Below are positions 1,331-15,591 of a stretch of DNA of 40,875 nucleotides, one piece after another. How positions within the stretch are numbered: the first letter of the stretch is position 1; every line of letters starts with the position of its first letter. Made by a program: the position numbers and the translations under genes. Origin of the DNA: a virus (taxonomy: Duplodnaviria; Heunggongvirae; Uroviricota; Caudoviricetes); IMG/VR virus record IMGVR_UViG_2563366845_000003, positions 1-40,875 of that record. The stretch is one strand, 5' to 3'. The notes below the pieces were generated by a model. It did not search any database and was not told where the DNA came from. It was given only the letters and a program-made list of their open reading frames with translations.

Positions 1331-1345
1331 GCTTTTTTATACTAA
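1331..1345. other. Prophage attachment site attL core (lambda att core GCTTTTTTATACTAA); lambda P' arm follows to about 1420
   Basis: Exact 15 bp lambda core at 1331..1345; sequence to its right matches the lambda P' arm (gcattataaaaaagcattgcttatcaatttgttgcaacgaacaggtcactatcagtcaaaataaaatcattatttg) and to its left reads as host (B arm, ccgttgaagcct). Confidence 0.9.
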
Positions 1346-1418
1346 GTAGGCATTATAAAAAAGCATTGCTTATCAATTTGTTGCAACGAACAGGTCACTA
1401 TCAGTCAAAATAAAATCA

Positions 1419-2489
1419 TTATTTGATTTCAATTTTGTCCCACTCCCTGCCTCTGTCATCACGATACTGTGATGCCATGGTGTCCGACTTATGCCCGAGA
1501 AGATGTTGAGCAAACTTATCGCTTATCTGCTTCTCATAGAGTCTTGCAGACAAACTGCGCAACTCGTGAAAGGTAGGCGGATCCCCTTCGAAGGAAAGAC
1601 CTGATGCTTTTCGTGCGCGCATAAAATACCTTGATACTGTGCCGGATGAAAGCGGTTCACGACGAGTAGATGCAATTATGGTTTCTCCGCCAAGAATCTC
1701 TTTGCATTTATCAAGTGTTTCCTTCATTGATATCCCGAGAGCATCAACATGCAATGTTGTTGGGATGGCAATTTTTACGCCTGTTTTGCTTTGCTCGACA
1801 TAAAGATATCCATCTACGATATCAGACCACTTCATTTCGCATAAATCACCAACTCGTTGCCCGGTAACAACAGCCAGTTCCATTGCAAGTCTGAGCCAAC
1901 ATGGTGATGATTCTGCTGCTTGATAAATTTTCAGGTATTCGTCAGCCGTAAGTCTTGATCTCCTTACCTCTGATTTTGCTGCGCGAGTAGCAGCGACCGG
2001 GTTTGTTGTTATATGGCCTTCAGCTATTGCCTCTCGGAATGCATCGCTCAGTGTTGATCTGATTAACTTGGCTGACGCCGCCTTGCCCTCGTCTATGTAT
2101 CCATTGAGCATTGCTGCAATTTCTTTTGTGGTGATGTCTTCAAGTGGAGCATCAGGCAGACCCCTCCTTATTGCTTTAATTTTGCTCATGTAATTTATGA
2201 GTGTCTTCTGCTTGATTCCTCTGCTGGCGAGGATTTTTTCGTAGCGATCAAGCCATGAATGTAACGTAACAGAATTATCACTGTTGATTCTCGCTGTCAG
2301 AGGCTTGTGTTTGTGTCCTGAAAATAACTCAATGTTGGCCTGTATAGCTTCAGTGATTGCTATCCTCCTGTCTCGGCCTAATCCAAACTCTTTACCCGTC
2401 CTTGGGTCCCTGTAGCAGTAATATCCATTGTTTCTTATATAAAGGTTAGGGGGTAAATCCCGGCGCTCATGACTTCGCCTTCTTCCCAT
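1419..2489 (-). CDS. int: Lambda-type tyrosine integrase Int
   Basis: 356 aa, begins MGRRRSHERRDLPPNLYIRNNGYYCYRDPRTGKEFGLG, essentially lambda Int; overlaps xis by 23 bp as in lambda. Confidence 0.97.
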   Translation of the reverse strand: MGRRRSHERRDLPPNLYIRNNGYYCYRDPRTGKEFGLGRDRRIAITEAIQANIELFSGHKHKPLTARINSDNSVTLHSWLDRYEKILASRGIKQKTLINYMSKIKAIRRGLPDAPLEDITTKEIAAMLNGYIDEGKAASAKLIRSTLSDAFREAIAEGHITTNPVAATRAAKSEVRRSRLTADEYLKIYQAAESSPCWLRLAMELAVVTGQRVGDLCEMKWSDIVDGYLYVEQSKTGVKIAIPTTLHVDALGISMKETLDKCKEILGGETIIASTRREPLSSGTVSRYFMRARKASGLSFEGDPPTFHELRSLSARLYEKQISDKFAQHLLGHKSDTMASQYRDDRGREWDKIEIK

Positions 2490-2685
2490 TTCTGATCCTC
2501 TTCAAAAGGCTACCTGTTACTGGTCGATTTAAGTCAACCTTTACCGCTGATTCGTGGAACAGATACTCTCTTCCATCCTTAACCGGAGGAGGGAATATCC
2601 TGCACTCGCGTACCCATCGACGAACTGTTTCAAGGCTTCTTGGGCGTCGCTGGCGAGCGTTCCACTCCTGAAGTGTCAAGTACAT
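2467..2685 (-). CDS. xis: Excisionase Xis (72 aa)
   Basis: MYLTLQEWNARQRRPRSLETVRRWVRECRIFPPPVKDGREYLFHESAVKVDLNRPVTGSLLKRIRNGKKAKS matches lambda Xis; ATG at 2683..2685 preceded by a GGAG Shine-Dalgarno. Confidence 0.9.
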   Translation of the reverse strand: MYLTLQEWNARQRRPRSLETVRRWVRECRIFPPPVKDGREYLFHESAVKVDLNRPVTGSLLKRIRNGKKAKS

Positions 2686-2955
2686 CGCAAAGTCTCCGCA
2701 ATTACACGCAAGAAAAAGCCGCATTGATGCGGCGATGAATTCAGCATTGGCCTGCTGTTCCATTTGGAAATCTTCATCGAAACCGCTTTCAGGATGCGCT
2801 CCTTCAATTCTGCAAATGGGAAGATATCCAACAACTTCACGATGAATTAGCGCATCACCAGCATCAAATCTCTCCTCTCCATATTCGAGCGACCACGCAC
2901 CACACGTTGCTTTTTCTGCTGCCTCACGCAGTGCCTGATAGTCAATCTTGTTCAT
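2686..2955 (-). CDS. Open reading frame in frame with and directly upstream of xis (90 codons, no intervening stop); hypothetical protein or N-terminal extension
   Basis: ORF 2467..2955 reads MNKIDYQALREAAEKATCGAWSLEYGEERFDAGDALIHREVVGYLPICRIEGAHPESGFDEDFQMEQQANAEFIAASMRLFLACNCGDFA then continues straight into Xis; ATG at 2953..2955. Confidence 0.35.
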
Positions 2956-2956
2956 G

Positions 2957-3256
2957 TCACATCACCCTGAAGCCGTTGCATTTACGTAAGAAATCGCAGA
3001 TATAGCCCTTCATTTTTTCATGCCAATCTCGATCATTCCCATTGCACCACCCATCAGGTGGAGTCCAGTTTTCTATCAGAGCAGCCATTTTCTTTGCTTT
3101 CGCCGGAGTAGCTGTTGCGGTATCGCAGTAATGACGAGTGTCAACAAACTTATCCATGCCATCGATATCAAGTACGCAAAACCATGTGTGATTCGGAATT
3201 CCTACAGGTGGTATTTGTTGCCCACGTCGGCGTTTATCAATGAGATATACACTCAC
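2957..3256 (-). CDS. Hypothetical Cys/His-rich small protein (99 aa)
   Basis: GTG start with strong AAGGAGGT Shine-Dalgarno 6 nt upstream; stop overlaps the next gene start; several C and H residues suggest metal binding. Confidence 0.6.
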   Translation of the reverse strand: MSVYLIDKRRRGQQIPPVGIPNHTWFCVLDIDGMDKFVDTRHYCDTATATPAKAKKMAALIENWTPPDGWCNGNDRDWHEKMKGYICDFLRKCNGFRVM

Positions 3257-3918
3257 TGGTTACCTCCTTTGCGAAGCTCTGCGGCGAACTCGTTAAGTGA
3301 TATGTAGCAATCTCCAAATGTTAACGAACCGCTCGACCGCATATGCTCCATAGCCATCTCCACGCCCTGCGCCCGTACTTCAGCCAGGAAAGCATCGGTG
3401 GCTGGCATATTTCCTGTTGCCTTCATGGCCTCCAAAATAACCAGAACGCCATCTCGCCCAACCACCTCAGCGATAACCTCGGTGTTGTCGCCAACAACAT
3501 CGCAGAATGCCTGAACTGCCTTACGAGCCAGCTCATTCTCCACTGCCAGCGCCGTGCGATTACCCTCCAGCTCTGCAATGCGCTGTTTTGCGGCATCCAG
3601 TTCAATCGACAATTTTTCCAACTGCTCTTGATGCTTCTTGTATTCCTGATATGCGTGCCAAGACTGACCTTTGCGCACACTATCAGTGATATCAGTAATC
3701 TGTTCTGGTGTTAGCGTGGTCAGTGGCTGTGATGGGAAAATAAGCACTTTCCCGGAATCCCAATCAAAACCAGCGTGAATTGACTGAACCTCAACTGAAG
3801 GTGTTGAACCAATGCTGCCAGGCGAATGAACAACGATTGTTACATCCATATCGCGACGATGGCTGTGGTTGTTGGACAAAATACGATTCACCAACTCAGA
3901 AAATTTGGAAAATTTCAT
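3253..3918 (-). CDS. Ea22-like early-left protein (coiled-coil; paralog 1)
   Basis: 221 aa, ATG with AAGGGG Shine-Dalgarno; coiled-coil segment (EQLEKLSIELDAAKQRIAELEGN); shares the [12 protein letters not shown] motif with the neighbouring gene; position matches lambda ea22. Confidence 0.55.
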   Translation of the reverse strand: MKFSKFSELVNRILSNNHSHRRDMDVTIVVHSPGSIGSTPSVEVQSIHAGFDWDSGKVLIFPSQPLTTLTPEQITDITDSVRKGQSWHAYQEYKKHQEQLEKLSIELDAAKQRIAELEGNRTALAVENELARKAVQAFCDVVGDNTEVIAEVVGRDGVLVILEAMKATGNMPATDAFLAEVRAQGVEMAMEHMRSSGSLTFGDCYISLNEFAAELRKGGNQ

Positions 3919-4709
3919 GCTGATTCCCCTTTCTCTGCTCTCTCCTGTCGGAACATCACTATCATCAGGTCGCCTTTTGTCGCTATCCTGGCTGTTGTAC
4001 CTGGTTCAATGCGGCTAAGCTCAAATGCGTCATAGAACGCTTCTAATGCCTTCTGGCGTAGTTCCTGTTTGCGCCGTTTTTTCCACTGTTTTAGGAAAAT
4101 GGAACCCAGCCATCGCCATGTACGGGACATGATGTAAAGCCAACCGCACTGGCTGCTTCCTTTGCGAATCTGTTCCGCCCATTCTTCAAGGGATTTCTCC
4201 GCATATTCACCAGACAGGCCATCAATCGGATGCGCTTCATTAGCCAACTCTTCTTTCGCTGACAAAATCATGCGTGTAACGTCGAAAACTTCACGCAAAG
4301 ACTTATTGATAAATCCGTGATTGAACGCAGCAGCAAGACGGCTGGCGGTATAGTTAATCCCCTCGTTGCGTGCTTCCGCACGAATTTCAGCCAGGAAAGC
4401 ATCGGTGGCTGGGGTTTCAGTAACATCATCTTCCCATTCGCTAAACTCCTCACGACAAAAGTCATTAAATTCCTTCTCAGATTGCTTAAGCGAGGTATTT
4501 TCAGCAGCCATCTTCGCGCATTTAGCCTCAAGGTTATCAATCGTGATTCCAGCAGAACGACACTCCAGCAACGCCGTTTCTAGTTTTGATTCAAGTTCAC
4601 CGAACTTACGCACCAGATATTCAGCGTTTGTTTCGTTAACCTTTAAATCTCTGGGGATGCATTTACCTTTCAGAAAACCATCCATCTCAATTAGTGACAT
4701 TTGTTTCAT
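3915..4709 (-). CDS. Ea22-like early-left protein (paralog 2)
   Basis: Track ORF 3915..4727 begins with GTG; ATG at 4707..4709 with GGAG Shine-Dalgarno is the preferred start; contains [12 protein letters not shown] motif; TGA/ATG overlap with the downstream gene. Confidence 0.55.
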
Positions 4710-4870
4710 TTCTTCCCACTCCGCCACATTGCATTCAGATATTTGTTGTCATTAACAGAGCCGAAACTATTTCTCTTAAGCAATTCCTCTCTCGATGGCA
4801 TTGGCTTTACGCGTTGGCGAATAATCATTTCTGCCGGAAGAATGCCGGGATTGTATGCAAGTCCTCTCAT
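4706..4870 (-). CDS. Small hypothetical protein (54 aa), translationally coupled
   Basis: ATG 4868..4870 overlaps the stop of the upstream gene (ATGA); GGAGAG Shine-Dalgarno; translation [54 protein letters not shown]; below the ORF-track size cut-off. Confidence 0.35.
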
Positions 4871-5148
4871 GATTTACTCTCCATGAACTGGTCAACAGCC
4901 ATGCTAAGTGATACACCTAAAGTCTCGATATGCTGCTGAATATCCTGTAGCGTCTGCGCCTGAGATAACAGGATTTCACGGTTGCATAACTCTTTGACCA
5001 GATGCTCAAACTTGCTGTAATAACCGATACGGCTTAGTGTTTCTTTCCCTGCATTCTCACCTTCTTTGATAATTCCTCTTTCGCTAAGAATCAGATCGTG
5101 TTTAGTTCCGGTAATAACGTATTTTCCGAGGTCGATGTTTAGCTTCAT
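4867..5148 (-). CDS. Hypothetical protein (93 aa)
   Basis: ATG-initiated ORF in the leftward early operon; no recognisable motif. Confidence 0.55.
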
Positions 5149-5164
5149 TGTTAATTACTCCATG

Positions 5165-5479
5165 TTAATTTATTCGTATGCCTGCTCTTTCTTCATCGAG
5201 TTTTTTTAGCTTGTATCGCATAGCTCTTACTGAATAAATTGAGCGGCAGGTTGCAATTGCTATTTCTTCTGCGGAGAACTTACCGAAAAGTGATACTTCG
5301 GCTCTTGTCCAGCGTCTTCCACGAAGTCGGCTAACAATGTCAGCTCCAATCCTTGTTGCTTTCGCCATTACTGCTTTTTCAGTCCTTTCCAGTTTTTCAG
5401 CGATAACTTCAACTGGCATTGTCGCCGCCACTTCGCGCAAGAAATCGACCTCCCATTTCTCCCATGGAGTCTTTTTCAT
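5165..5479 (-). CDS. Hypothetical protein (104 aa) with two tandem W-x-E-V motif repeats, possibly DNA-binding
   Basis: ATG-initiated; internal repeat (WEKWEVDFLREVAA / WTRAEVSLFGKFSAEEIA) resembles tandem helix-type DNA-binding repeats. Confidence 0.5.
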   Translation of the reverse strand: MKKTPWEKWEVDFLREVAATMPVEVIAEKLERTEKAVMAKATRIGADIVSRLRGRRWTRAEVSLFGKFSAEEIAIATCRSIYSVRAMRYKLKKLDEERAGIRIN

Positions 5480-5490
5480 AGGCGATACCG

Positions 5491-5973
5491 TTATTTGATA
5501 AGAAGTGAAGGTTTCCCAACTTTGAGTTGAGCGCCGGGGATATTTATTCCTGCTTTTAGTTGGTGTTTGATTGCCAGTTTGTCGGCTTTAATTGTCGTTT
5601 CAAACTCAACGTATTCAGGAGGAAGGGCGCTTGAGTCGATGATTTCTACAGTTTCTGACGGTTTGCGGATTGTTACCTGGTGAATACCTGCTCGAATCTT
5701 TTTCTTGCCAACCATTTCAAGCGATGACGCTATATACGCCATAATGCTGTCAATCTTGTTTTGAATTACTGCGGCTCGCTCATTTAGTGACTTTGCCTCT
5801 TCCTTGAGGCGTTCAGCATAACCAGATTCATTTTTAATAATGGCAAGAAGTTGCTCTATTTTATCGGTAAATTCTCCTTCCATGCCTTCTATTGTGTCAG
5901 CAATCATCTCTGGTTCTAAATCTGAATCCATTAATTTTGCGTATTCATTGGCAATTTCATACAGTTTGCTCAC
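5491..5973 (-). CDS. Recombination-associated protein, Gp157-like (partner of RecT/Erf in many phages)
   Basis: 160 aa; GTG start with GGAGG Shine-Dalgarno; sits immediately upstream of recT; family assignment from memory of sequence character only. Confidence 0.5.
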   Translation of the reverse strand: MSKLYEIANEYAKLMDSDLEPEMIADTIEGMEGEFTDKIEQLLAIIKNESGYAERLKEEAKSLNERAAVIQNKIDSIMAYIASSLEMVGKKKIRAGIHQVTIRKPSETVEIIDSSALPPEYVEFETTIKADKLAIKHQLKAGINIPGAQLKVGKPSLLIK

Positions 5974-6859
5974 TGGCAGCCTCCAGTTTCGCTTTGCATT
6001 CTATGTAAATGGCTTGTACGTTCTGCTGCAATTTCATTCCAGATGTCAGTCGATATGCTTCTGCAAAATATCGCTTCAAATCATCCATGTTTTCTGCCTG
6101 ATCCATTTCATCACAAAGAAGTTGTGCTTTTTCCATTATTTCCTGCTGGCGTTTCCGTTCATCTTCGCGGATATCTTCCTCTGATTTGTGCGGCATAACT
6201 GGTTCCTGATGCATACCTTCATCTTCGTTAAGCAGGTGAATGGCATTATCCAGTCGCTGGGCTTTAGGCCAGTATTTGCTGGCGCGTTTAACTATTGTTT
6301 TACGCGCCATCTCTTCCCAGAATGTTTTCCACGGTCCATTCTTTGCCTTGCTCGTTGCTTCCACAGCTTTAATTTCTGCCAGACTCATTTCTTCAGTCAG
6401 GTAGTCACCATCTGCTGTTTTAACCGTGCAATAACCTCCAACAATAGAGCCTCGCTCACCAAATGCGTTGTATTTGTGGGTTGGTGCTGAATCAAGGCCA
6501 TTTGATTCATAGGTGTCGTTTGAGTACACCAGTTTGCATTGCCCCCACTTAATTGATCCTGTCGATTGCGCAAGATGAAGTAATCCCATGTAACTGATAT
6601 CAAGGCACACCATGCCGTCGCGCGGAACCAGATAAGCCAGTTTGCTGGCCGGGTTTAAGGTGATGCCGATCGCCGCAACATTGATGATGGCGTTCTGTGC
6701 GCTGGTTGGATTTGCCAGTGCCGTTTTAGCCAGGTAATCGTTTTTCTGGAAATACTGAATTGCAAACTGGCTTTCCTTAGCCCATGTCACCGTCTGTTCA
6801 GTCAATGCTCCGCAGAATAACTGCTCTTGCTGTTTAACGAATTCAACGATATTGCTCAT
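5957..6859 (-). CDS. recT: RecT-family single-strand annealing recombinase (lambda Bet analog)
   Basis: 300 aa; motif GPWKTFWEEMARKTIVKRASKYWP matches the RecT signature (GPWVTHWEEMAKKTAIRRLFKYLP in Rac RecT). Confidence 0.85.
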   Translation of the reverse strand: MSNIVEFVKQQEQLFCGALTEQTVTWAKESQFAIQYFQKNDYLAKTALANPTSAQNAIINVAAIGITLNPASKLAYLVPRDGMVCLDISYMGLLHLAQSTGSIKWGQCKLVYSNDTYESNGLDSAPTHKYNAFGERGSIVGGYCTVKTADGDYLTEEMSLAEIKAVEATSKAKNGPWKTFWEEMARKTIVKRASKYWPKAQRLDNAIHLLNEDEGMHQEPVMPHKSEEDIREDERKRQQEIMEKAQLLCDEMDQAENMDDLKRYFAEAYRLTSGMKLQQNVQAIYIECKAKLEAASEQTV

Positions 6860-7167
6860 GCTGCTTCTCCAAAAATGTGTCTGCGTTTGAATATTGCGAA
6901 GGCATATTCAGCCTTAACTCTTTCGGTTATTGCATCCCAGAACCATTCAGCGGCTTTTTCCTGATAGTTACAGTCATCATCTTCCAGCCAGTCGATAGCG
7001 TCCTTAGTGTGTTCATCTGGTTTATATGAGCGAAGCATTTCGCTTATTGGGTCGCAACGTTTGCAGAGGCGATCAACTTCACTGTTGATTCGTTCGTAAT
7101 CTTCATCAGTAAAACTTGCGATGATTTGCGATATTTCACGCTTATCATTCAGAGTCAGAATCATCAT
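6856..7167 (-). CDS. Hypothetical protein (103 aa) in the position of lambda gam
   Basis: ATGATG start; stop overlaps recT start (ATGA); acidic with several Cys; no similarity to lambda Gam apparent. Confidence 0.5.
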   Translation of the reverse strand: MMILTLNDKREISQIIASFTDEDYERINSEVDRLCKRCDPISEMLRSYKPDEHTKDAIDWLEDDDCNYQEKAAEWFWDAITERVKAEYAFAIFKRRHIFGEAA

Positions 7168-7252
7168 CTTTCTCCTGTTCTTTGTGCTGATTGAGCATTT
7201 TGTTCATCTGACGAATGAATTCCTCGTCTGACCAGTTATCTGTAAAACTCAT
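7145..7252 (-). CDS. Very small hypothetical protein (35 aa), translationally coupled to kil-like gene
   Basis: ATG 7250..7252 overlaps the kil-like stop (ATGA); translation MSFTDNWSDEEFIRQMNKMLNQHKEQEKDDDSDSE. Confidence 0.25.
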   Translation of the reverse strand: MSFTDNWSDEEFIRQMNKMLNQHKEQEKDDDSDSE

Positions 7253-7401
7253 TTCCTGCGATACCACGGAAGGTTGATAGCTGATTTCATCGCTTTATTT
7301 GCTTCAAGCCACATTTTGGAATCACCAATAAATCTGGCTATTACTGCTTTGTTTTGTGCTGCACGAAGCATCTGGTGATTGATGGCTATTTCATTGCGCA
7401 T
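7249..7401 (-). CDS. kil: Kil-like small protein (lambda Kil family, host division inhibitor)
   Basis: 50 aa MRNEIAINHQMLRAAQNKAVIARFIGDSKMWLEANKAMKSAINLPWYRRK; FIGD-KM motif recalled for lambda Kil; GGAGG Shine-Dalgarno; between cIII and the recombination genes as in lambda. Confidence 0.45.
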   Translation of the reverse strand: MRNEIAINHQMLRAAQNKAVIARFIGDSKMWLEANKAMKSAINLPWYRRK

Positions 7402-7520
7402 AACGCCTCCAGTTGTTTCTTTGCTGCTCTGATTAATTGTTTAACTCGGCGTGATAATTCAGATTCGTGCGGGTAGAAAGCGGACATGACGCCGCTACCC
7501 GCGAGCTGAAAGTGCATCAT
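7386..7520 (-). CDS. cIII: CIII-like protein (FtsH inhibitor that stabilises CII)
   Basis: 44 aa MMHFQLAGSGVMSAFYPHESELSRRVKQLIRAAKKQLEALCAMK; resembles the lambda CIII core (AGWPVAGCPSESLLERITRKLRDGW); GGAG Shine-Dalgarno; the track ORF 7386..7625 is an upstream over-extension. Confidence 0.55.
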   Translation of the reverse strand: MMHFQLAGSGVMSAFYPHESELSRRVKQLIRAAKKQLEALCAMK

Positions 7521-7584
7521 GGGTAACTCCTTATATTTGATTGCATAACGAAAACGCCTCGAGTGAAGCGTTATTGGTATGCAT

Positions 7585-7610
7585 ATAAAAAAGCCCTCAC
7601 ATTGGAGGGC
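7585..7610 (-). terminator. Intrinsic terminator on the minus strand, about 65 nt upstream of cIII
   Basis: Minus-strand hairpin GCCCTC-caatgt-GAGGGC followed by TTTTTTAT. Confidence 0.6.
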
Positions 7611-7673
7611 AAAGAAGATTTCCAATAATCAGAACAAGTCGGCTCCTGTTTAGTTACGAGCGACATTGCTCCG

Positions 7674-7700
7674 TGTATTCACTCGTTGGAATGAATACAC
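7674..7700. repeat. Perfect 9 bp inverted repeat with 9 bp spacer (GTGTATTCA-N9-TGAATACAC)
   Basis: Read directly; lies in the non-coding stretch between the two leftward terminators. Confidence 0.6.
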
Positions 7701-7728
7701 AGTGCAGTGTTTATTCTGTTGTTAGTGC

Positions 7729-7754
7729 CAAAAATAAAGGCCGGCTATGCGGCC
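7729..7754 (-). terminator. Intrinsic terminator (tL-like) at the 3' end of the accessory gene
   Basis: Minus-strand GC-only 5 bp stem GGCCG-catagc-CGGCC followed by TTTATTTTTGG; overlaps the stop codon at 7745..7747. Confidence 0.55.
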
Positions 7755-8368
7755 TCGGAAGGAAGTCCAATCATCTTATTCAAATCTTCTACCCGTAAAG
7801 CAGGAAGTGCTGTACTTGCTTTATCTGCTTCTTTTGGTAGCAACTCTTTGCTTTCAGGCCAAACTTCAATAAGTCGCTTAACTGTTGTGACTGAGTTCAA
7901 AGCAGCCCATACATTTGATTTGATATCCTTTTTCTTGACTTCAAGTTTTTGTTGCAATGCGCAGATTTCATCAAACCTTTTTGTTATTTCGTGTTCTGCG
8001 TCAAACATGCATTTATCTTTTTCTGGGGTGGGGAGCAATATATCTTCACCGTTGCCGTCTTTTCCGTATGAATGCCAGCCAACTCTTCTGCCAGATACAG
8101 TCAGATAAATTGATGTAGAACGAACATCGTATGAGTAAAATGAACATCCCAGTTTTTTAAGTTCTTCACTTATAGCTACTAACTTGGATGATAACTGATC
8201 CACTTCCTCAGTTTTCTTTTTACCGCCAAACGCAATAACTCTGGCGTCAAGTGCAAGCTGGTTCTTTAACTTTGTTACTTCTTCAAGTTCAGTGAAAACC
8301 CCAGACTTAATTAAAGCGTTACGAGCGATTTCCTCTTTCATTCTCGTAGTTAAGCGGATTGATGACAT
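7745..8368 (-). CDS. Hypothetical accessory protein (207 aa, hydrophilic, Lys/Glu-rich, coiled-coil-like); function unknown
   Basis: ATG at 8366..8368 (MSSIRLTTRMKEEIARNALIKS) with GAGAGGAA Shine-Dalgarno; the track ORF begins upstream at a TTG; followed by its own terminator; occupies the lambda ral/sieB/ea10 position. Confidence 0.7.
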   Translation of the reverse strand: MSSIRLTTRMKEEIARNALIKSGVFTELEEVTKLKNQLALDARVIAFGGKKKTEEVDQLSSKLVAISEELKKLGCSFYSYDVRSTSIYLTVSGRRVGWHSYGKDGNGEDILLPTPEKDKCMFDAEHEITKRFDEICALQQKLEVKKKDIKSNVWAALNSVTTVKRLIEVWPESKELLPKEADKASTALPALRVEDLNKMIGLPSEAA

Positions 8369-8504
8369 ATTAATTCCTCTCAAATAAGTGGTTTGCTGCC
8401 TAATTTCATTTTCTGGCGACCAACACAAGTCACACCCATTTCACTGCGTGGCTTGCGGTAGTAAATAGGGTTATTTATGTCATTAAAAACCAGCATGAGC
8501 GTGG

Positions 8505-8783
8505 TTATTTTTTCTTTCCAAGAGATGGAAGCCCTCCAGAATAATCTGGACCACTTGAACGATGCATTTGATACAATATTGCGTTTTTTATTGCGTTTTT
8601 GTTGGCGTTTAGTGGCTTTGTTGCGAAAGAAATTTTTTCTCGTTTTACATCTCTTATCATCATCAACTCACGTTCTGATGCTTTTGGATGATAATCATTG
8701 ATATGCTTCCATGCTGCCTTGGCGCTGAATTTTCTTCCACATAAAGGGCAATAGCATTTATATGATACTTGTTTGCTAGTCAT
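8505..8783 (-). CDS. Small C2H2-like zinc-finger protein (92 aa)
   Basis: Motif C-P-L-C-x11-H-x4-H (CPLCGRKFSAKAAWKHINDYH); ATG 2 nt after the N stop codon. Confidence 0.6.
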   Translation of the reverse strand: MTSKQVSYKCYCPLCGRKFSAKAAWKHINDYHPKASERELMMIRDVKREKISFATKPLNANKNAIKNAILYQMHRSSGPDYSGGLPSLGKKK

Positions 8784-8785
8784 TT

Positions 8786-9094
8786 CTATCTCGCCGTAAT
8801 TGATTTCATTGACCTGTAACCAGCAGCATACAGTGCAACTTCAGGCAAACAAACGCTTCCGCCATTCGCATCTGTATTTGATTTACTGATGATGCCGAGT
8901 GATATTGCTTTTTCAGAAAGACTTAAACGCTTTCTCGGTTCTTCCTGAACAGCTTCCTCACTGTCTGTGCCGAAGATCGAATCGATGATGTTGCAGATGG
9001 AATCACGCTCGATAGCCAGCTTTCTGCGCCGCTCATGACGGCGAGTTTTGGCATTTCCTGCAAATGTTGATTTTCCGTACACGATTACCGTCAT
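8786..9094 (-). CDS. N: Antitermination protein N, P22 type (gene 24 homolog)
   Basis: 102 aa starting MTVIVYGKSTFAGNAKTRRHERRRKLAIER; GNAKTRRHERRRKLAIER is the P22 N arginine-rich boxB-binding peptide; GAGGA Shine-Dalgarno; the track ORF over-extends upstream. Confidence 0.85.
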   Translation of the reverse strand: MTVIVYGKSTFAGNAKTRRHERRRKLAIERDSICNIIDSIFGTDSEEAVQEEPRKRLSLSEKAISLGIISKSNTDANGGSVCLPEVALYAAGYRSMKSITAR

Positions 9095-9213
9095 GATGTT
9101 TTCCTCATGTGAAATGGCTTTGGTGGTGATGCGCCAGGTGCTGATCTTCTGGTTGCTGTCGTTGCAGCTGCAATTCACATCACCGCCAAACCCATCTCGT
9201 TTGGTATCTGTTT

Positions 9214-9247
9214 GCGCTTTGTCAGCGCCCCATCGAAGTTAAAGAGC
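9214..9247 (-). promoter_or_regulatory. nutL site (boxA GCTCTTTAAC, 9 nt spacer, boxB GCGCTGACAAAGCGC)
   Basis: On the minus strand boxB is identical to P22 nutL boxB; boxA matches the CGCTCTTTA-type consensus; lies in the pL leader upstream of N. Confidence 0.8.
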
Positions 9248-9293
9248 CTGCCAATCTGTTCCGTTTGGCTACCAGCGTCCTGCTGATGGCTAA

Positions 9294-9322
9294 ATAGTAC
9301 GATGTGTACTTTAATGAGTCAA
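9294..9322 (-). promoter_or_regulatory. pL promoter (-35 TTGACT, 17 bp spacer, -10 TACTAT) with overlapping OL operator palindrome AGTACGATGTGTACT
   Basis: Hexamers on the minus strand at 9317..9322 and 9294..9299; palindrome AGTAC-N5-GTACT at 9296..9310 overlaps the -10; a related element sits in OR. Confidence 0.6.
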
Positions 9323-9385
9323 TACAAAATGTTCTAAATGTGGTTGGTTTTTTATAACACTTTGTATTTTATTGATTTATATTTT

Positions 9386-9417
9386 GGAAAAAGAAAACCC
9401 GACGCTAAGGTCGGGTT
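9386..9417 (-). terminator. Intrinsic terminator downstream of cI
   Basis: Hairpin CCCGAC-loop-GTCGGG with a T-rich run on the minus strand (TTTTCTTTTTCC); T-rich on the plus side too, so possibly bidirectional. Confidence 0.65.
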
Positions 9418-9447
9418 ATTGTTGTGTGTTTTAGAGTGGTGAGGCTG

Positions 9448-10107
9448 TTAACTAAATGTCTCTTCAGGCCACTGGCTGGCGATAACTTTCCCTACTACGG
9501 AACAGCTATCATTGCATGGGATCATTGGATATTGCGGGTTTAGTGGTTGTAGGAACACCTGACCGCTATCCCTGATCAGTTTCTTGAAGGTAAACTCGTC
9601 ACCGCCAAGTCTGGCTATGCAGAAATCTCCTGGCTCAACAGCCTGCTCAGGGTCAACGAGAATTAACATTCCGTCAGGAAAGCTTGGCTTGGATCCTGTT
9701 GGTGCGGTCATGGAATTACCTTCAACTTCAAGCCAAAACGCACAATCACTGGCTTTTTTGGTTGTGCTGACCCATCTCTCCGCATCACCTTTGGTAAAGG
9801 TTCTAAGCTCAGGCGAGAACATCCCGGCCTGAACATGAGAAAAAACAGGGTACTCATATTGTTTTTTAACGGGGGCAGATGAGTATTCGCCAACAGGTGA
9901 AAATGTACCGTCGTGGTTGAATGAGACGTTATCAATACCAAGGTATTTAAACACCACACCAATCTCGTCAAGAGATGGATGACGAGATCCGCGCAACCAG
10001 TGACCAATTCCACCCTGCGTCATACCAAGCTCTTCAGCTAACTTCTCTTGAGTTATGCCGAGCTCTTTCATTCTGGATCTAGCCAGTTCATACCATTTCA
10101 TTTTCAT
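9448..10107 (-). CDS. cI: CI-type prophage repressor (HTH N-terminal domain plus lambda-like S24 LexA-type autopeptidase C-terminal domain)
   Basis: C-terminal 130 aa nearly identical to lambda CI ([38 protein letters not shown] ... QWPEETF); N-terminal DNA-binding domain is different; ATG 10105..10107 with AAGGA Shine-Dalgarno; the track ORF over-extends to 10182. Confidence 0.85.
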
Positions 10108-10163
10108 ATCCTTATTATTACGCTCTGTACTAAAACCATCCATGCACAAGATGTATTTTTTGT

Positions 10164-10192
10164 TTGCATTCCAAAAGTACATATCGTATTAT
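10164..10192 (+). promoter_or_regulatory. pR promoter (-35 TTGCAT, 17 bp spacer, -10 TATTAT) with overlapping OR operator-like element AGTACATATCGTATT
   Basis: Hexamers at 10164..10169 and 10187..10192; AGTAC-containing element at 10176..10190 resembles the OL palindrome. Confidence 0.55.
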
Positions 10193-10218
10193 TGTTTCAT
10201 GGTTACTATGGAGGGCAT

Positions 10219-10434
10219 ATGAGCAACCTACGAAAATATCGAGAGTCACTGAATATCTCTCAAACAACACTTGCTAAGGCAGTTGGATGCACACAGGGAG
10301 CTATCGGGCATTGGGAATCTGGTCGTCGCTTCCCAGACCTTAAAACATGCCGTGCTCTTGTTGCGTGCCTAAACAAGTTAGGCGCAAAAGTAAGTCTTGA
10401 TGACGTGTTCCCGCCTGAACACAAAGCCGCTTAA
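10219..10434 (+). CDS. cro: Cro-like HTH repressor (71 aa)
   Basis: MSNLRKYRESLNISQTTLAKAVGCTQGAIGHWESGRRF, an XRE/Cro-type HTH; GGAGGG Shine-Dalgarno; divergent from cI; the track ORF over-extends upstream. Confidence 0.8.
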   Translation: MSNLRKYRESLNISQTTLAKAVGCTQGAIGHWESGRRFPDLKTCRALVACLNKLGAKVSLDDVFPPEHKAA

Positions 10435-10444
10435 TAAGCGGATC

Positions 10445-10479
10445 CGCTCTTTATCAATCTGCACCGCCGACAACGCGGT
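10445..10479 (+). promoter_or_regulatory. nutR site (boxA CGCTCTTTA; boxB ACCGCCGACAACGCGGT)
   Basis: boxA at 10445..10453; boxB hairpin at 10463..10479 with a 5 bp stem and 7 nt loop, recalled as P22 nutR type; between cro and cII. Confidence 0.7.
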
Positions 10480-10543
10480 AACTAATTAATCACTCATCGA
10501 AAAATGAGTATTAGTGATTATTTACCTATGGAAATAGTAAGAA

Positions 10544-10840
10544 ATGGAACAAACAAGTTATAGCAAACTATCACAGCGCGACGTTGATCGCGCAGAAACA
10601 GATTTACTCATCAACCTGTCAACGCTTACCCAGCGCGGTCTGGCAAAGATGATTGGCTGTCATGAATCGAAGATAAGCAGAACGGACTGGAGATTTATTG
10701 CTTCGGTCTTGTGTGCTTTCGGAATGGCATCAGACATCAGTCCGATTAGCAGGGCTTTTAAGTATGCGCTTGATGAAATCACAAAGAAAAAATCCCCGGC
10801 CGCCACCGAGGATTTTAAGCAAATTGATATGCAATTCTGA
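10544..10840 (+). CDS. cII: CII-like transcriptional activator
   Basis: 98 aa; C-terminus [18 protein letters not shown] resembles lambda CII (KKRPAATERSEQIQMEF); HTH region [14 protein letters not shown]. Confidence 0.8.
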
Positions 10841-10863
10841 GGGAATTACTGGATCAATCCACA
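10787..10863 (-). ncRNA. OOP-like antisense RNA (about 77 nt) overlapping the 3' end of cII
   Basis: Minus-strand terminator CCUCGG-uggcgg-CCGGGG followed by AUUUUUU at 10787..10811; candidate pO -10 CATAAT at 10870..10875 puts the 5' end near 10863; the 54 nt overlap with cII mirrors lambda OOP. Confidence 0.45.
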
Positions 10864-10872
10864 GGAGTCATT

Positions 10873-11019
10873 ATGACAAAACAACTCAGTCCTTACCAGG
10901 ACAAAATTCACAAACACATACTACGTGATCGCTTCCTGTCCAGCTTCAAGCAGCCTGGTCGATTCCGGGCTGAGTTGGAAAAAGTGAAGCTGATGCAGAA
11001 GGAGAAAGGTCATGAGTAA
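10873..11019 (+). CDS. Small hypothetical protein (48 aa) between cII and O
   Basis: ATG at 10873 with AGGAG Shine-Dalgarno; [48 protein letters not shown]; stop overlaps the O start; overlaps the predicted pO/OOP 5' end, so uncertain. Confidence 0.35.
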
Positions 11020-11911
11020 CATATCTAATCTAGCCGAAGCCAGAGAGGCCAGAAGGCTACAACAACCGCATCAAAGCAGCGGTAAGGGGTATGCCTTGCT
11101 GCACCGTAAAATTATGGATGTGCCGTTTTACAAGGACGCAGAAGCAGCGCATCTGTGGGTTCACTTAATCCTCAAAGCAAAGCATACGCCTGAGTATGTA
11201 ATGACTGACGCAGGAGAAATTCTGGTAGGCAGAGGGAAGCTACTTGGCGGTAGAAACTCTCTGGCGTTTGAAACAGGACTCAAACCAGATCGCGTTCAGT
11301 ACCTGCTTAGAAAGTTCAAAAAACTCGGCATGATTGACTGGGTTTCACACGGTAAATTCTCAGTTTTCTCGGTAGAGAAATATGACGATTATCAGTCAAA
11401 TTTTGTACCAGCAGATTACCAGCAAATTACCACCTCAAAGCCAGCAATACCAATGGCTGCAAGCAATACTGTACCAGCAGATTACCAGCAAATTACCACA
11501 GATAAAGAATATAATAATATTATCTCTAATACTGACGTATTAGAGAGTACCGCAGCAGACAAAAAGTCTGACAAGAAAAAACCTTCCGTTAGCTGTCAGG
11601 ATGTTGTCGATGCTTACCACGAAATCCTTCCTGAAGCGCCAAGAATCCGCGCACTGAATGACAAGCGTAAAAACCAGATCCGAACGTTCTGGCGCAAAGC
11701 CGGAGTGATAACCCGCCAGCTTGACGGGCATGGGTTCACGATGCAGGACTGGAGAAATTATTTGAGCTACGTAGGCGAAAATTGTCGATGGATGTTCGAA
11801 GAGCGCCCAAACCATCAGCGCGGAACCGTCTGGCACAAAAAGGGATTTGATTTCCTGCTTAACGATAATACCTACCTGAAAGTTCGTGAGGGTGAACACG
11901 ATGACCGATAA
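11012..11911 (+). CDS. O: Replication initiation protein (lambda O / P22 gp18 functional class)
   Basis: 299 aa; position after cII; contains the ori-like iteron array; internal tandem [10 protein letters not shown] peptide repeat. Confidence 0.7.
11404..11537. repeat. Putative replication origin: two 29 bp direct repeats (iteron-like, ATTACC units) followed by an AT-rich block
   Basis: GTACCAGCAGATTACCAGCAAATTACCAC at 11404..11432 and 11470..11498; then gataaagaatataataatattatctctaatactg; same architecture as lambda ori inside O. Confidence 0.55.
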
Positions 11912-13337
11912 TTTTTATTCGCCGCCAAATAGCATCGAGGCAGAGCAGGCGGTGATTGGTGGATTGCTTCTGGATGATGACAGCAGTGAGCGCGTCCAGA
12001 AAGTTCTGGCGATGCTGAAGCCTGACTCATTTTACAGCCGGCCACACAAAATCCTTTTCGAAGAAATAACCAGAATGCACCGGGAGCAAAAGCCAGTAGA
12101 TGGCCTGACGCTTTTCGATGAACTGGAGCGTAAATCGTTAACGGCGTCTGTTGGCGGTTTTGCTTATATCGCTGAGATCGCAAAGAACACGCCAAGCGCA
12201 GCAAACATCGTTGCCTATGCAATGCAGGTTCGTGAAACCGCAATGGAACGCTACGCCATCAACCGCATGACTGAAGCGACGGAATTGCTCTATTCCCGCA
12301 ACGGAATGACTGCAACGCAGAAGTACGAAGCTATTCAGTCGATTTTCACGCAACTGACAGACCATGCAAAAACCGGATCGCGTCGCGGCCTTCGTTCATT
12401 TGGTGAGGTCATGGAAGACTGGGTTAGCGACCTTGAGAAGCGATTTGACCCATCAGGCGAACAACGGGGAATGAGCACAGGGATCCCATCGCTGGACAGG
12501 ATGCTGTCACCGAAAGGTCTGGTGAAAGGCTCTCTGTTTGTCATTGGCGCTCGCCCTAAGATGGGGAAAACGACGCTATACAGCCAGATGGCAATCAATT
12601 GCGCAGTGCATGAGAAAAAGCCCGCTTTGATGTTCAGCCTTGAAATGCCAGGTGATCAGATACTGGAAAAACTGGTAGGGCAGAAGTCTGGTGTTAACCC
12701 GAATATTTTTTACCTTCCGGCGACAAATGACGCTGATGACGGCTATCAGGGTGATTACGATGGTGACTTCAACAGGGCGATCGAAACAGCCAATCGCTTG
12801 AGTGAAATCGACCTGCTTTACATCGACGACACGCCGGGATTATCTCTGGCTCAAATCGTCAGCGAAAGTCGTCGAATCAAGCGAGAAAAAGGATGTGTTG
12901 GCATGATTCTGGTCGATTACCTGACACTAATGACCGCTGAGAAGGCCGATCGCAACGACCTTGCTTACGGCATGATCACCAAAGGACTGAAGAACCTTGC
13001 CAAAGAGCTTGATTGTGTTGTTGTGCTTCTGACACAGCTTAACCGCGCACTGGAAAGCCGAACCAATAAACGCCCATTACCAAGTGACTCCCGAGATACA
13101 GGGCAGATTGAACAGGATTGCGATTATTGGGTTGGGATCCATCGTGAAGGTGCTTTTGATGACAGTGTTCCACCTGGTGAAACTGAACTAATCCTTCGTC
13201 TCAATCGTCATGGCAATACCGGCACGGTGTATTGCATTCAGGCAAATGGCGCTATTTATGACACAGACCAACAGTCTGCTGAAATGCGCCGCCGTGAACG
13301 CGAGGAACCGCAATCCAAGAAGAAAGGAGGATTCTGA
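11901..13337 (+). CDS. Replicative DNA helicase, DnaB family (P22 gp12-like)
   Basis: Walker A GARPKMGKTT; DnaB-like N-terminal domain; ATG 11901 overlapping the O stop; the track ORF begins at an upstream GTG. Confidence 0.85.
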   Translation: MTDNFYSPPNSIEAEQAVIGGLLLDDDSSERVQKVLAMLKPDSFYSRPHKILFEEITRMHREQKPVDGLTLFDELERKSLTASVGGFAYIAEIAKNTPSAANIVAYAMQVRETAMERYAINRMTEATELLYSRNGMTATQKYEAIQSIFTQLTDHAKTGSRRGLRSFGEVMEDWVSDLEKRFDPSGEQRGMSTGIPSLDRMLSPKGLVKGSLFVIGARPKMGKTTLYSQMAINCAVHEKKPALMFSLEMPGDQILEKLVGQKSGVNPNIFYLPATNDADDGYQGDYDGDFNRAIETANRLSEIDLLYIDDTPGLSLAQIVSESRRIKREKGCVGMILVDYLTLMTAEKADRNDLAYGMITKGLKNLAKELDCVVVLLTQLNRALESRTNKRPLPSDSRDTGQIEQDCDYWVGIHREGAFDDSVPPGETELILRLNRHGNTGTVYCIQANGAIYDTDQQSAEMRRREREEPQSKKKGGF

Positions 13338-13364
13338 TGACCATCTACATCACTGAGCTAATAA

Positions 13365-13396
13365 CAGGCCTGCTGGTAATCGCAGGCCTTTTTATT
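13365..13396 (+). terminator. Intrinsic terminator between the replication genes and the nin region (tR2-like)
   Basis: AGGCCTGC-tggtaatc-GCAGGCCT followed by TTTTTATTT. Confidence 0.7.
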
Positions 13397-13413
13397 TGGG
13401 GGAGAGGGAAGTC

Positions 13414-13854
13414 ATGAAAAAACTAACCTTTGAAATTCGATCTCCAGCACATCAGCAAAACGCTATTCACGCAGTACAGCAAATCCTTCCAGACCCAACC
13501 AAGCCAATCGTAGTGATCATTCAGGAGCGCAACCGCAGCTTAGACCAGAATCGAAAGCTTTGGGCTTGCCTTGGTGACGTTTCGCGTCAGGTTGAATGGC
13601 ATGGTCGCTGGCTGGATGCAGAAAGCTGGAAGTGTGTGTTTACCGCAGCATTAAAGCAGCAGGACGTTGTTCCTAACCTTGCCGGGAATGGCTTTGTGGT
13701 AATAGGCCAGTCAACCAGCAGGATGCGTGTAAGCGAATTTGCGGAGTTATTAGAGCTTATACAGGCATTCGGTACAGAGCGTGGCGTTAAGTGGTCAGAC
13801 GAAGCGCGACTGGCTCTGGAGTGGAAAGCGAGATGGGGAGACAGTGCTGCATGA
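13414..13854 (+). CDS. ninB: NinB (Orf-family recombination mediator)
   Basis: MKKLTFEIRSPAHQQNAIHAVQQILPDPTKPIVV ... near-identical to lambda NinB; GGAGAGGG Shine-Dalgarno. Confidence 0.92.
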   Translation: MKKLTFEIRSPAHQQNAIHAVQQILPDPTKPIVVIIQERNRSLDQNRKLWACLGDVSRQVEWHGRWLDAESWKCVFTAALKQQDVVPNLAGNGFVVIGQSTSRMRVSEFAELLELIQAFGTERGVKWSDEARLALEWKARWGDSAA

Positions 13855-14378
13855 CTATCAAATCAAATACGCCAGCACACGACAAGGACTGCTGGCAAAC
13901 GCCGCTCTGGCTTTTTGATGCACTGGATATTGAGTTTGGATTCTGGCTGGATTCGGCAGCGAGCGACAAAAATGCTCTGTGCGCTCACTGGCTAACTGAG
14001 GCTGACAACGCGCTCAATTCTGAGTGGATAAGCCACGGTGCAATCTGGAATAACCCACCGTACAGCAATATCAGGCCGTGGGTGGAAAAAGCCGCTGAGC
14101 AGTGCATACAACAGCGACAGACGGTAGTGATGCTTGTGCCAGAGGATATGTCAGTCGGATGGTTCAGCAAGGCTCTGGAGAGTGTTGACGAAGTTCGTAT
14201 TATCACTGATGGACGGATTAATTTTATCGAACCATCGACAGGGCTGGAGAAAAAGGGAAACAGCAAAGGCTCCATGCTGCTGATTTGGCGACCGTTCATC
14301 AGTCCTCGACGGATGTTTACTACCGTATCCAAAGCGGCATTGATGGCGATCGGGCAGGGCGTCAGGAGGGCAGCATGA
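13851..14378 (+). CDS. dam: Phage DNA N6-adenine methyltransferase (Dam-like)
   Basis: NPPY catalytic motif (WNNPPYSN); ATG overlaps the ninB stop (ATGA). Confidence 0.75.
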
Positions 14379-14551
14379 GACGACAGCGACGAAGTATCAC
14401 CGACATCATCTGCGAAAACTGCAAATACCTTCCAACGAAGCGCTCCAGAAATAAATGCAAGCCAATCCCAAAAGAATCTGACGTAAAAACATTCAACTAC
14501 ACGGCTCACCTGTGGGATATCCGGTGGCTAAGACATCGTGCGAGGAAATGA
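14375..14551 (+). CDS. ninE: NinE
   Basis: [58 protein letters not shown] matches lambda NinE. Confidence 0.9.
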
Positions 14552-14913
14552 CAATGGATTATTCACAGTTAAGTGATTTTGAAATTAACGTGGCGGTATT
14601 CGAAGCCATTCATAACGGATCACCTGATTACAAAGAAGGTGAGAATGGCGATATGGTGTTTGTCTCATTTGAGGGAGACATTGTAAACGGAGACGCAGTT
14701 GAAGTAGAAGTTGAGCGCGGATCATTTAACCCATGCGTAAACCCAGCAGACGCATGGCCGATTATTGAAAAATACAGGATTAGCATTATCAATCTCGATG
14801 AAGACGAGTGGGGTGCACGCGGTGTGGCCTACTGTAAATCTAAGCGAGCTATACATGAAAATCCCCTCCGCGCCGCCATGATTGTCTTTCTCATGATGCA
14901 GAGAATCCAATAA
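14548..14913 (+). CDS. Nin-region protein (NinX / DUF2591-like), hypothetical
   Basis: 121 aa from ATG 14548 ([36 protein letters not shown]); family name recalled, not verified. Confidence 0.5.
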
Positions 14914-15089
14914 TGCTTAGCCCATCCCAATCCCTTCAATACCAGAAAGAAAGCGTCGAGCGAGCTTTAACGTGCGCTAACTGCGGTCAGAAGCTGCATG
15001 TGCTGGAAGTTCATGTGTGTGAGCACTGCTGCGCAGAACTGATGAGCGATCCGAATAGCTCAATGTACGAGGAAGAAGACGATGAGTGA
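14913..15089 (+). CDS. ninF: NinF
   Basis: 58 aa [50 protein letters not shown] matches lambda NinF; below the ORF-track cut-off. Confidence 0.85.
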   Translation: MLSPSQSLQYQKESVERALTCANCGQKLHVLEVHVCEHCCAELMSDPNSSMYEEEDDE

Positions 15090-15591
15090 TGTTAAAGAAA
15101 AAGATATCCCCGGCTTTGAGGGTATATATAAAGTAACTGAAAATGGAGACATCATTTCATGCCGTAAATCAAAAAAATTATCTCATGGTATTAAACCAGG
15201 AGGATATGCATTTGTCGGTCTGTATCCAGGTGGCGGGAAAAGACCATCATATAAAATGGTTCACAGAATTGTTGCAGAAGTATTTATTGATAACCCAGAT
15301 GGCAAACCGGAAGTTAATCACAAGGATGGAAATAAACTTAATAATAAAGTTGAAAATCTTGAGTGGGTAACGCGAACAGAAAATGCGAAACATGGATTTG
15401 ATTCCGGGTTGCTTGTTCATGGTTTTAATCATCACTTCTGCAAACTAACGCCAGAACAAGTGAAATCAATATATAAATCAAAAGGCAAATACAGAGATAT
15501 AGCCAAAGAATTTGGTGTTTGTGCGCAGACAGTGTGCAACATAAAAAACAAATCAGCGTACCGACGTTTTTTGGAGGGGATTGATGTTTAG
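15082..15591 (+). CDS. HNH homing endonuclease (NUMOD4-like N-terminus plus HNH_3-type nuclease domain)
   Basis: GFEGIYKVTENGDIIS N-terminal motif; HNH-type H/N residues (VNHKDGNKLNNKVENLEWVTRTEN); markedly AT-rich compared with neighbours. Confidence 0.75.
   Translation: MSDVKEKDIPGFEGIYKVTENGDIISCRKSKKLSHGIKPGGYAFVGLYPGGGKRPSYKMVHRIVAEVFIDNPDGKPEVNHKDGNKLNNKVENLEWVTRTENAKHGFDSGLLVHGFNHHFCKLTPEQVKSIYKSKGKYRDIAKEFGVCAQTVCNIKNKSAYRRFLEGIDV

Follow-up and report, generated by a model that had tools for sequence, protein, structure and literature searches.

The DNA analysed here, called the window throughout, comprises positions 1 to 40,875 of the IMG/VR record IMGVR_UViG_2563366845_000003 and is an integrated lambdoid prophage with P22-type virion genes; the subject of this study is two neighboring genes on its minus strand, in the leftward early operon, which lie between the antiterminator gene N and cIII (Table 1). 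Reading away from the promoter pL, the order is a P22-type nutL, N, a gene for a 92-amino acid protein with a zinc-finger motif (the finger gene), an 81-bp relic of a lambda-type N, a gene for a 207-amino acid protein of the Nmad5 family, and the first predicted terminator, which is followed by two further hairpins and then by cIII, kil, a 103-amino acid open reading frame (ORF), RecT and a Gp157-family protein. The original prediction, made from the letters of the DNA, was that the two genes form an uncharacterized accessory cassette closed by its own terminators and that this was the most likely place in the window for a defense, exclusion, or anti-defense function. The features on which it was built are all present: N is of the P22 type, with a Pfam N_peptide match and a P22-type nutL upstream, the smaller ORF contains the C-x2-C-x11-H-x4-H motif exactly as written, the larger ORF has a ribosome-binding site, and GC-rich hairpins with T-tracts lie where two terminators had been placed. 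The two ORFs are separated by a spacer of 136 bp. An antisense ORF (7707..8108, plus strand) and small ORFs between Nmad5 and cIII were judged noncoding on composition alone.

Table 1. Features of the leftward early operon and its surroundings, listed from the repressor gene toward kil; dG, predicted folding free energy.
Feature	Position	Strand	Basis and remarks
cI-type repressor (helix-turn-helix and S24 peptidase)	9448..10182	-	Pfam
Strong hairpin between repressor gene and pL	9417..9396	-	dG -12.4 kcal/mol, z -4.35
pL-like sigma-70 promoter, TTGACT-17-TACTAT	9294..9322	-	Promoter scan, 9/12 matches; between cI terminator and nutL/N
nutL, P22 type	9214..9247	-	boxA GCTCTTTAA 9247..9239 and boxB GCGCTGACAAAGCGC 9228..9214; exact matches, unique in window
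Antiterminator N, P22 type, 102 amino acids	8786..9094	-	Pfam PF25694 N_peptide 6.5e-37; PHROG 271
Zinc-finger ORF, 92 amino acids	8505..8783	-	Start 2 nucleotides past N stop codon; PHROG 20899
Lambda-type N relic, 3' end	8380..8460	-	Alignment to HK542
Nmad5-family protein, 207 amino acids	7745..8368	-	GAGAGGA ribosome-binding site; Pfam PF18757; PHROG 1965
First predicted intrinsic terminator after pL	7729..7756 (hairpin 7756..7737)	-	dG -11.2 kcal/mol, then TATTTTT; loop holds Nmad5 stop codon
Second terminator-like hairpin, T6 tract	7585..7610 (hairpin 7610..7593)	-	dG -11.1, z -3.35
Third, weaker terminator-like hairpin, just upstream of cIII	7545..7572 (hairpin 7572..7553)	-	dG -9.9
cIII, 44 amino acids, next pL-operon gene	7386..7520	-	Pfam cIII 2e-30
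kil, 50 amino acids	7249..7401	-	Pfam Lambda_Kil 1.7e-20

The larger protein had been held to belong to no recognizable family, but over its full length it belongs to the Nmad5 family (nucleotide modification associated domain 5; Pfam PF18757, InterPro IPR040835), with residues 4 to 203 covering profile positions 1 to 206 of 206 (3.8e-71, 239.8 bits against a cut-off of 27); it also matches PHROG 1965 (1.3e-82), and near-identical genes carry the RefSeq name "Nmad5 family putative nucleotide modification protein". DNA matching the cassette, in essence its Nmad5 gene, is present in 1385 of 5426 complete Escherichia coli genomes, as well as in phages mEp235, HK542, HK244, Kapi1, and SH2026Stx1 and in Stx1a- and Stx2a-converting phages. 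The ratio of nonsynonymous to synonymous substitution (dN/dS) is 0.29 over 62 alleles from 80 related viral loci, and homologues reach down to 28% identity at constant length. An exhaustive profile search returned 2304 clusters (50% identity) at E<=1e-3, and nearly all of the best 150 of these are stand-alone proteins of 190 to 220 amino acids; divergent relatives in genome contigs were sought by a degenerate DNA pattern search. The family is encoded by phages or prophages and occurs also in N4-like phages and in Dhillonvirus, which we take to be virulent. Plasmids carry it in 6 of 72,556 records, all of them nonmobilizable and, bar one record of 473 kb, of phage-genome size (24–48 kb). In Stx2a-converting phages (for example LC616058.1 11132-11653; H2-H30, H60-H70) the Nmad5 match begins no earlier than residue 34, each record shows it at two places or in several pieces, and the gene in that lineage seems to be truncated or interrupted.

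The smaller gene is also real, with homologues at 60 to 99% identity and a match to PHROG 20899 (3.9e-62), and we judge both ORFs to be genuine genes. Its product is basic (isoelectric point, pI, 10), and the four putative ligands of its motif, C12-x2-C15-x11-H27-x4-H32, are invariant in intact homologues; the spacer of 11 residues is one short of the classical C-x2-4-C-x12-H-x3-5-H arrangement, and F19 and W25 are present. Pfam offered zinc-finger families only, all below threshold (zf-C2H2, 14.0 bits versus 25.2; zf-Di19, 19.5 versus 27.5), a profile search of the Protein Data Bank (PDB) gave C2H2 fingers only, weakly, through CPLCGRKFS, and an NCBIfam scan gave nothing. The AlphaFold2 (AF2) model, of low confidence (predicted local distance difference test, pLDDT, 52.6), has a beta-beta-alpha arrangement at residues 9 to 31 (strands 9-11 and 18-20, helix 21-31). 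The window allele differs from the common 88-amino acid allele solely by a 12-nucleotide in-frame tandem duplication, KNAI-KNAI (8600..8577, minus strand), and the form without the duplication is found in all five E. coli alleles inspected (L001 to L005 in our numbering of loci). The finger gene sits directly behind N, at the place where mEp235 and Kapi1 have a Nun-like gene. The finger protein was considered as a Nun analogue and rejected, as it has no arginine-rich N-terminus and aligns with the mEp235 Nun-like protein only at a BLASTP E value of 4.6. Because the gene tightly abuts N, its coexpression with N is suggested, and we infer that the product is a small basic single-finger binder of nucleic acid or protein that travels with this N allele. 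Taken together, the profile and structure searches placed the larger protein in a family that has no relative among solved structures and gave weak C2H2 matches only for the smaller one; the larger gene is thus a new copy of a catalogued family, and the smaller is a rare orphan.

The notion of a two-gene cassette does not hold, since the finger gene is present in 14 of the 5426 E. coli genomes and only 2 of these have the full pair with Nmad5, and the neighbors of each gene vary. In the five finger loci inspected, the gene always directly follows the same P22-type N, next to a LexA-family (cI-type) repressor that is one and the same protein accession in four of the five, while the downstream content is Nmad5 (L001), an 83-amino acid and a 322-amino acid gene (L002), Ral (L003), or a 107-amino acid gene followed by either a 98-amino acid gene (L004) or an insertion sequence element (L005). 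Nmad5, correspondingly, is preceded in HK542 by a lambda-type N, in SH2026Stx1 by a hybrid N, and in mEp235 and Kapi1 by a Nun-like gene. The 80 viral loci mentioned above carry an Nmad5 of 94 to 98% identity, the pair is present in one of them, and N is detectable in 58; in 44 of these 58 nothing separates N from Nmad5, and the gap is otherwise occupied by Ral (7 loci), by a Nun-like gene (4), by Ral together with a Nun-like gene (2), or by the finger gene (1). Ral is a distinct 66-amino acid gene, found upstream of Nmad5 in 9 of the 58 loci, and neither window gene has homology to it. Four further genes, likewise optional, are present or absent from locus to locus between Nmad5 and cIII. The synteny comparison therefore found the genes to be variable rather than core, and on that point the idea of cargo stands unrefuted: the region between N and cIII is supported as a variable cargo slot, occupied, as far as gene order and sequence can tell, by two independent, individually exchangeable accessory genes of the pL operon and by no two-gene system.

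The spacer between the two genes carries a trace of how they came together. The 81 bp at 8460..8380 (minus strand) correspond, at 99% identity, to the final 26 codons of the lambda-type N of HK542 with their stop codon (..YRKPRSEMGVTCVGRQKMKLGSKPLI*), and 119 of 120 nucleotides are identical to the end of the HK542 N gene plus the start of Nmad5, which abut in that phage. The relic thus points to import of the Nmad5 module from a phage in which Nmad5 followed a lambda-type N, with a piece of N dragged along; it is nonfunctional here, a recombination scar that travels with the Nmad5 module, and in other loci the same leader is cut at different junction points. In the Ral-containing loci among L010 to L089, Ral ends in its own small GC hairpin with a T-tract, GGCTGCCTGATGGTGGCCTTTATTTT, as Nmad5 does. 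Each module between N and cIII seems to end in such a hairpin, which may serve at once as a weak terminator and as a boundary for recombination.

The arrangement of predicted signals bears on when the two genes would be expressed. On the minus strand, a consensus scan gave no terminator-like site between pL and position 7756, so that a single transcript, the first and independent of N, should cover N, the finger gene, and Nmad5. The first hairpin beyond them, whose loop contains the end of Nmad5, is kept with minor stem variants in the 79 related viral loci where the gene end could be located, and terminator-like sites in the region number 7 against 3.4 +/- 2.2 expected. By a GC-rich hairpin, a T-tract, and conservation in relatives these sequences qualify as intrinsic terminators, termination being predicted, and we infer that the hairpin after Nmad5 plays the role of tL1. 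After infection or induction, the first transcript would then yield the zinc-finger protein and Nmad5 along with N, and N-modified RNA polymerase would subsequently pass the hairpins to reach cIII, kil, and recT. The boxB of nutL, GCGCTGACAAAGCGC, is the P22 boxB-left sequence. No promoter specific to either the zinc-finger gene or Nmad5 was predicted in the promoter scan. With pL repressed and cI transcription ended before pL, both genes would be silent in the lysogen; they should be early lytic genes, off in the lysogen and on in the first moments of infection or induction. The hairpin that ends the cI transcript has a clear T-tract after its stem on the minus strand only, and it parts the lysogenic transcript from the early operon. 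More distant prophages support the early-gene reading for Nmad5: in Klebsiella prophages, Nmad5 (57% identity) is the first gene past a pL-like promoter, TTGACG-17-TATTAT, with no N gene between, and in Serratia and Providencia prophages it is the first called gene after the repressor. The Klebsiella prophages in question (for example L211, 4577-5630) are Rac-like; in them and in the Providencia and Serratia prophages, a set that also includes L209, L210, L212, and L213, Nmad5 comes first behind the repressor and a pL-like promoter, and an N gene is absent.

Distant members of the family have other neighbors. Of 46 divergent viral loci, 16 have Nmad5 linked to a DUF2800 nuclease of the PD-(D/E)XK type, an Enc34-type single-stranded DNA-binding protein (SSB), and usually a family-A DNA polymerase of about 700 amino acids; the linkage occurs in two different gene orders, and in 11 divergent loci Nmad5 is within one or two genes of the DNA polymerase. 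In a Providencia prophage the order is repressor, Nmad5, a 259-amino acid gene, DUF2800, SSB, and PolA, so that Nmad5 heads the operon. In the N4-like Shigella phage B2 the order is thymidylate synthase, Nmad5, PD-(D/E)XK nuclease, a 720-amino acid protein, an AAA protein, and SSB, and in YuA Nmad5 stands between a 5-hydroxymethyldeoxyuridine (5-hmdU) DNA kinase and a thymidylate-synthase-like hydroxymethylase, with PolA a few genes further. A recurrent module in IMG/VR (L135, L204, L131, L134, L179; L098, L173) comprises a 300-amino acid protein, DUF2800, the Enc34-type SSB, Nmad5, and the family-A DNA polymerase, with Nmad5 either after SSB or ahead of the whole set; the 300-amino acid partner has no Pfam match. 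From these gene neighborhoods, it seems that the family is linked more generally to replication modules and that the linkage to hypermodification genes, from which it has its name, is one special case of this.

The Nmad5 protein itself does not look like an enzyme. Across 141 sequences (140 diverse representatives and the query), the motifs T-x-K-[KR]-L-x3-W-P-E-x2-E-L-x-P and L-N-x2-I-G-L-P, together with R5, A18, R43, G48, and G93, are conserved at >=90%, and all are present in the window protein; G, P, L, W, and N account for most of the conserved positions, and acidic residues or histidines are few among them. In the AF2 model, which is confident (pLDDT 84), three long helices (8-72), a beta hairpin (86-100), and a further long helix (127-158) are followed by short helices bearing W170-P-E, so that the whole is a helical bundle with a beta hairpin, and a disordered tail (184-207) holds the most conserved peptide of the family, L-N-x2-I-G-L-P. 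No solved structure resembles the model, a PDB sequence-profile search with the Nmad5 alignment was also empty, and what BFVD returned was, in essence, family members and unnamed proteins only. With a pI of 8.3 the protein is slightly basic and therefore no acidic DNA mimic. The C-terminus (window 7745-7753, minus strand) ends in -EAA, -QAA, or -EEAA in the window protein and its closest relatives, an ending reminiscent of ClpX C-terminal recognition tags that is not conserved in distant Nmad5 members, and a link to ClpX would be speculative.

Published experimental data on the family come from Dhillonvirus. There, a K-to-E change in Nmad5 gives escape from the defense system Tmn, attempts to clone the homologue failed, with apparent toxicity, and a deletion mutant is viable, without Tmn sensitivity being abolished (PMC11846954). 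The escape residue, K216 of SM_A8, aligns with R165 of the window protein, which is the conserved basic position in T-x-K-[K/R]-L, immediately ahead of W-P-E. In SM_A8 (L207, 3178-4297), the gene and a 104-amino acid partner that has no Pfam match make up an island of two genes, flanked by capsid genes and on the opposite strand. A 2026 preprint gives RIIB as the trigger of Tmn in T2 and describes it as an early replisome-associated protein (PMC13001434). Nmad5 was considered as a relative of RIIB of T4/T2 and rejected (hhalign probability 0.6%), so that any parallel between the two is functional at most.

The reading that we tentatively favor, giving it a little less than an even chance, is that Nmad5 is an early, nonenzymatic accessory of DNA replication, recombination, or host takeover. 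Under this reading, the mostly helical protein would act by binding a partner when phage DNA replication or recombination starts up, or in a linked takeover of the host, and the candidate binding surface would be the conserved basic T-x-K-[K/R]-L...W-P-E element together with the C-terminal L-N-x2-I-G-L-P peptide, which is likewise conserved though disordered. The tie to replication is suggested because distant Nmad5 genes sit in nuclease-SSB-polymerase modules or first after pL; a nonenzymatic role, because of the helical bundle and hairpin and the nature of the conserved residues; and a host-directed action that is also sensed, because the Dhillonvirus homologue is uncloneable and Tmn escape maps to it. 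Several points weigh on the other side. The experimental data would have to be carried over from outside the lambdoid phages, and the argument from context from relatives at 28 to 58% identity, while the lambdoid phages that carry Nmad5 lack a DNA polymerase A module and replicate with the host replisome. Because Nmad5 is optional in lambdoid phages and its deletion in Dhillonvirus is viable (PMC11846954), it is not an essential replication factor. The conserved residues R5, N17, K21, R43, H126, E172, and E175 could form an active site after all, and an immediate-early position and optional status would suit an anti-defense protein equally well. In addition, the terminator and promoter scans behind the expression logic are simple consensus searches, and the zinc-finger model is of low confidence, metal binding being putative.

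The main rival, which we consider on the unlikely side, is that Nmad5 is an anti-defense protein, made first after infection to neutralize a host system and itself detected by a second-line system, Tmn being an example. In four enterobacterial genera the gene is immediate-early and promoter-proximal; this position, the sharing of a variable interval with the anti-restriction gene ral, and the character of optional, mosaic cargo are all what such a protein would show, and so is the placement of the Dhillonvirus homologue in a small island among capsid genes. Nmad5 nevertheless accompanies Ral instead of replacing it, both being present in the nine loci noted above, and its pI makes it no mimic of DNA of the Ocr or ArdA type. 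Many anti-defense genes occur in conjugative leading regions, and Nmad5 is nearly absent from plasmids; moreover, many phages have it embedded between SSB and DNA polymerase. The genetic data cut both ways, as the Tmn-escape substitutions in Nmad5 and its apparent toxicity on cloning fit an anti-defense protein that is sensed, but the deletion leaves Tmn sensitivity in place (PMC11846954).

An improbable alternative, to which we would give only a small chance, takes the family name at its word and makes Nmad5 a component of a DNA or nucleotide base-modification pathway. The family owes its name to a linkage with modification genes (Iyer et al. 2013, as cited in PMC11846954), and Nmad5 is listed in the thymidine hypermodification cassette of the M6-like phage SN1 (PMC9476957); the neighbors of Nmad5 in YuA and its position beside thymidylate synthase in B2 agree with it. 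Among the window proteins scanned (ORFs at 1-17023 and two near the right end), however, there is no hydroxymethylase, 5-hmdU kinase, or aGPT-pyrophosphorylase, and the only modification gene is a Dam methylase in the rightward operon (13791-14378), about 5.4 kb off. The 11 divergent loci with Nmad5 beside the polymerase have no room for a multigene modification cluster, the helical-bundle fold has no relative among solved enzymes, and no report of nucleotide-modifying activity for Nmad5 was found in the literature searched.

The least probable alternative, with a very slight chance, is that the two genes are a prophage defense or superinfection-exclusion cassette active in the lysogen; the position corresponds to that of lambda ral, sieB, and ea10, the content of the interval is variable, and the finger gene lies in the Nun-like slot of mEp235 and Kapi1, but the genes are codirectional downstream of a repressed pL with no promoter of their own predicted, the cI transcript is ended before pL, the two do not travel together, the finger protein is dissimilar to the Nun-like protein, and lysogen defense would be meaningless in N4-like phages and Dhillonvirus. 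Comparison with a defense catalogue gave no match for either protein: in PADLOC-DB v2.0, Nmad5 hit no family and the finger protein returned a sole row at E=0.017 (11.4 bits), and Nmad5 gave nothing in the NCBIfam scan either. The NMAD domain of a validated DefensePredictor system is Nmad2, not Nmad5, and is irrelevant to this gene. Of the original idea, then, the variable cargo slot is retained, and a defense or exclusion function expressed from the prophage, for which nothing positive was found, is not.

Returning to Nmad5 as an early accessory protein, a broader picture can be drawn, which we regard as distinctly unlikely in its entirety: Nmad5 would be a widespread immediate-early effector that docks on a host or replisome partner through the basic T-x-K-[K/R]-L/W-P-E surface and the C-terminal peptide, this surface would be watched by the Tmn membrane NTPase (nucleoside triphosphatase), and, separately, the N-linked finger protein would be a new transcription or exclusion factor in the Nun slot. 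If it were true, induction of lambdoid prophages would be visible to Tmn. What the region offers is catalogued mosaic cargo and no new defense cassette, and it is chiefly useful for giving a cleaner hypothesis about a prophage gene that is very common in E. coli. About a quarter of complete E. coli genomes, and Stx-converting phages as well, contain DNA matching the region. The name "nucleotide modification" is guilt by association, and the association fails in lambdoid phages; the sharper hypothesis is that of an immediate-early, promoter-proximal gene that in distant phages lies beside nuclease, SSB, and polymerase genes, and the published Tmn-escape substitution, on the conserved R165 motif, provides a specific residue to mutate.

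The remainder of the window is that of a P22-like prophage. At its left end (1-2489), a fragment of a host pectinesterase-like gene adjoins a lambda-type integrase, with an excisionase, and beyond the leftward operon and the cI-type repressor there follow cII, a DnaB-type helicase, NinB, Dam, NinX, RusA, and Q. Besides the Dam methylase, the nin region has a NUMOD4/HNH homing-type endonuclease (15082-15591). P22-like head genes and a tailspike with a P22 Head_binding domain (38188-40875), which reaches the right end, are also present. An Rfam scan of the whole window gave no matches.

The two genes can be compared with several known systems. The finger protein resembles classical C2H2 fingers locally, its CPLCGRKFS...H-x4-H being like the eukaryotic consensus Y-K-C-P-E-C-G-K-S-F-S, but it differs in the Cys-to-His spacer, 11 residues instead of 12, and in scores that stay below the Pfam thresholds. 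To HK022 Nun and the mEp235 Nun-like protein it is an analogue in position only, with neither sequence similarity nor the N-terminal arginine-rich motif. The lambda genes ral, sieB, and ea10 share with the window genes their place in the operon and their optional, mosaic character, but they have no sequence relationship to them; sieB has its own promoter, whereas none is predicted for the window genes. The Dhillonvirus Nmad5 of SM_A8 and SMS22 is of the same Pfam family (2.8e-55), with a C-terminal half 34% identical to that of the window protein, but it is at least 254 amino acids long with a divergent N-terminal half, and the Tmn link there is genetic and from Dhillonvirus alone. YuA gp15, its M6/SN1 counterpart, and gp19 of the N4-like phage B2 are of the same family, being stand-alone proteins of about 200 amino acids with the same C-terminal motifs, but they are only 28 to 35% identical and are set among replication or modification genes that the window does not have. 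Finally, mEp235 gp37, HK542 gp33, HK244 orf01, and Kapi1_018 are of the same length as the window Nmad5, with 95 to 97% protein identity and the same place between N and cIII; compared with these the Nmad5 gene itself is no different, and what is unusual in the window is only the zinc-finger gene upstream of it.

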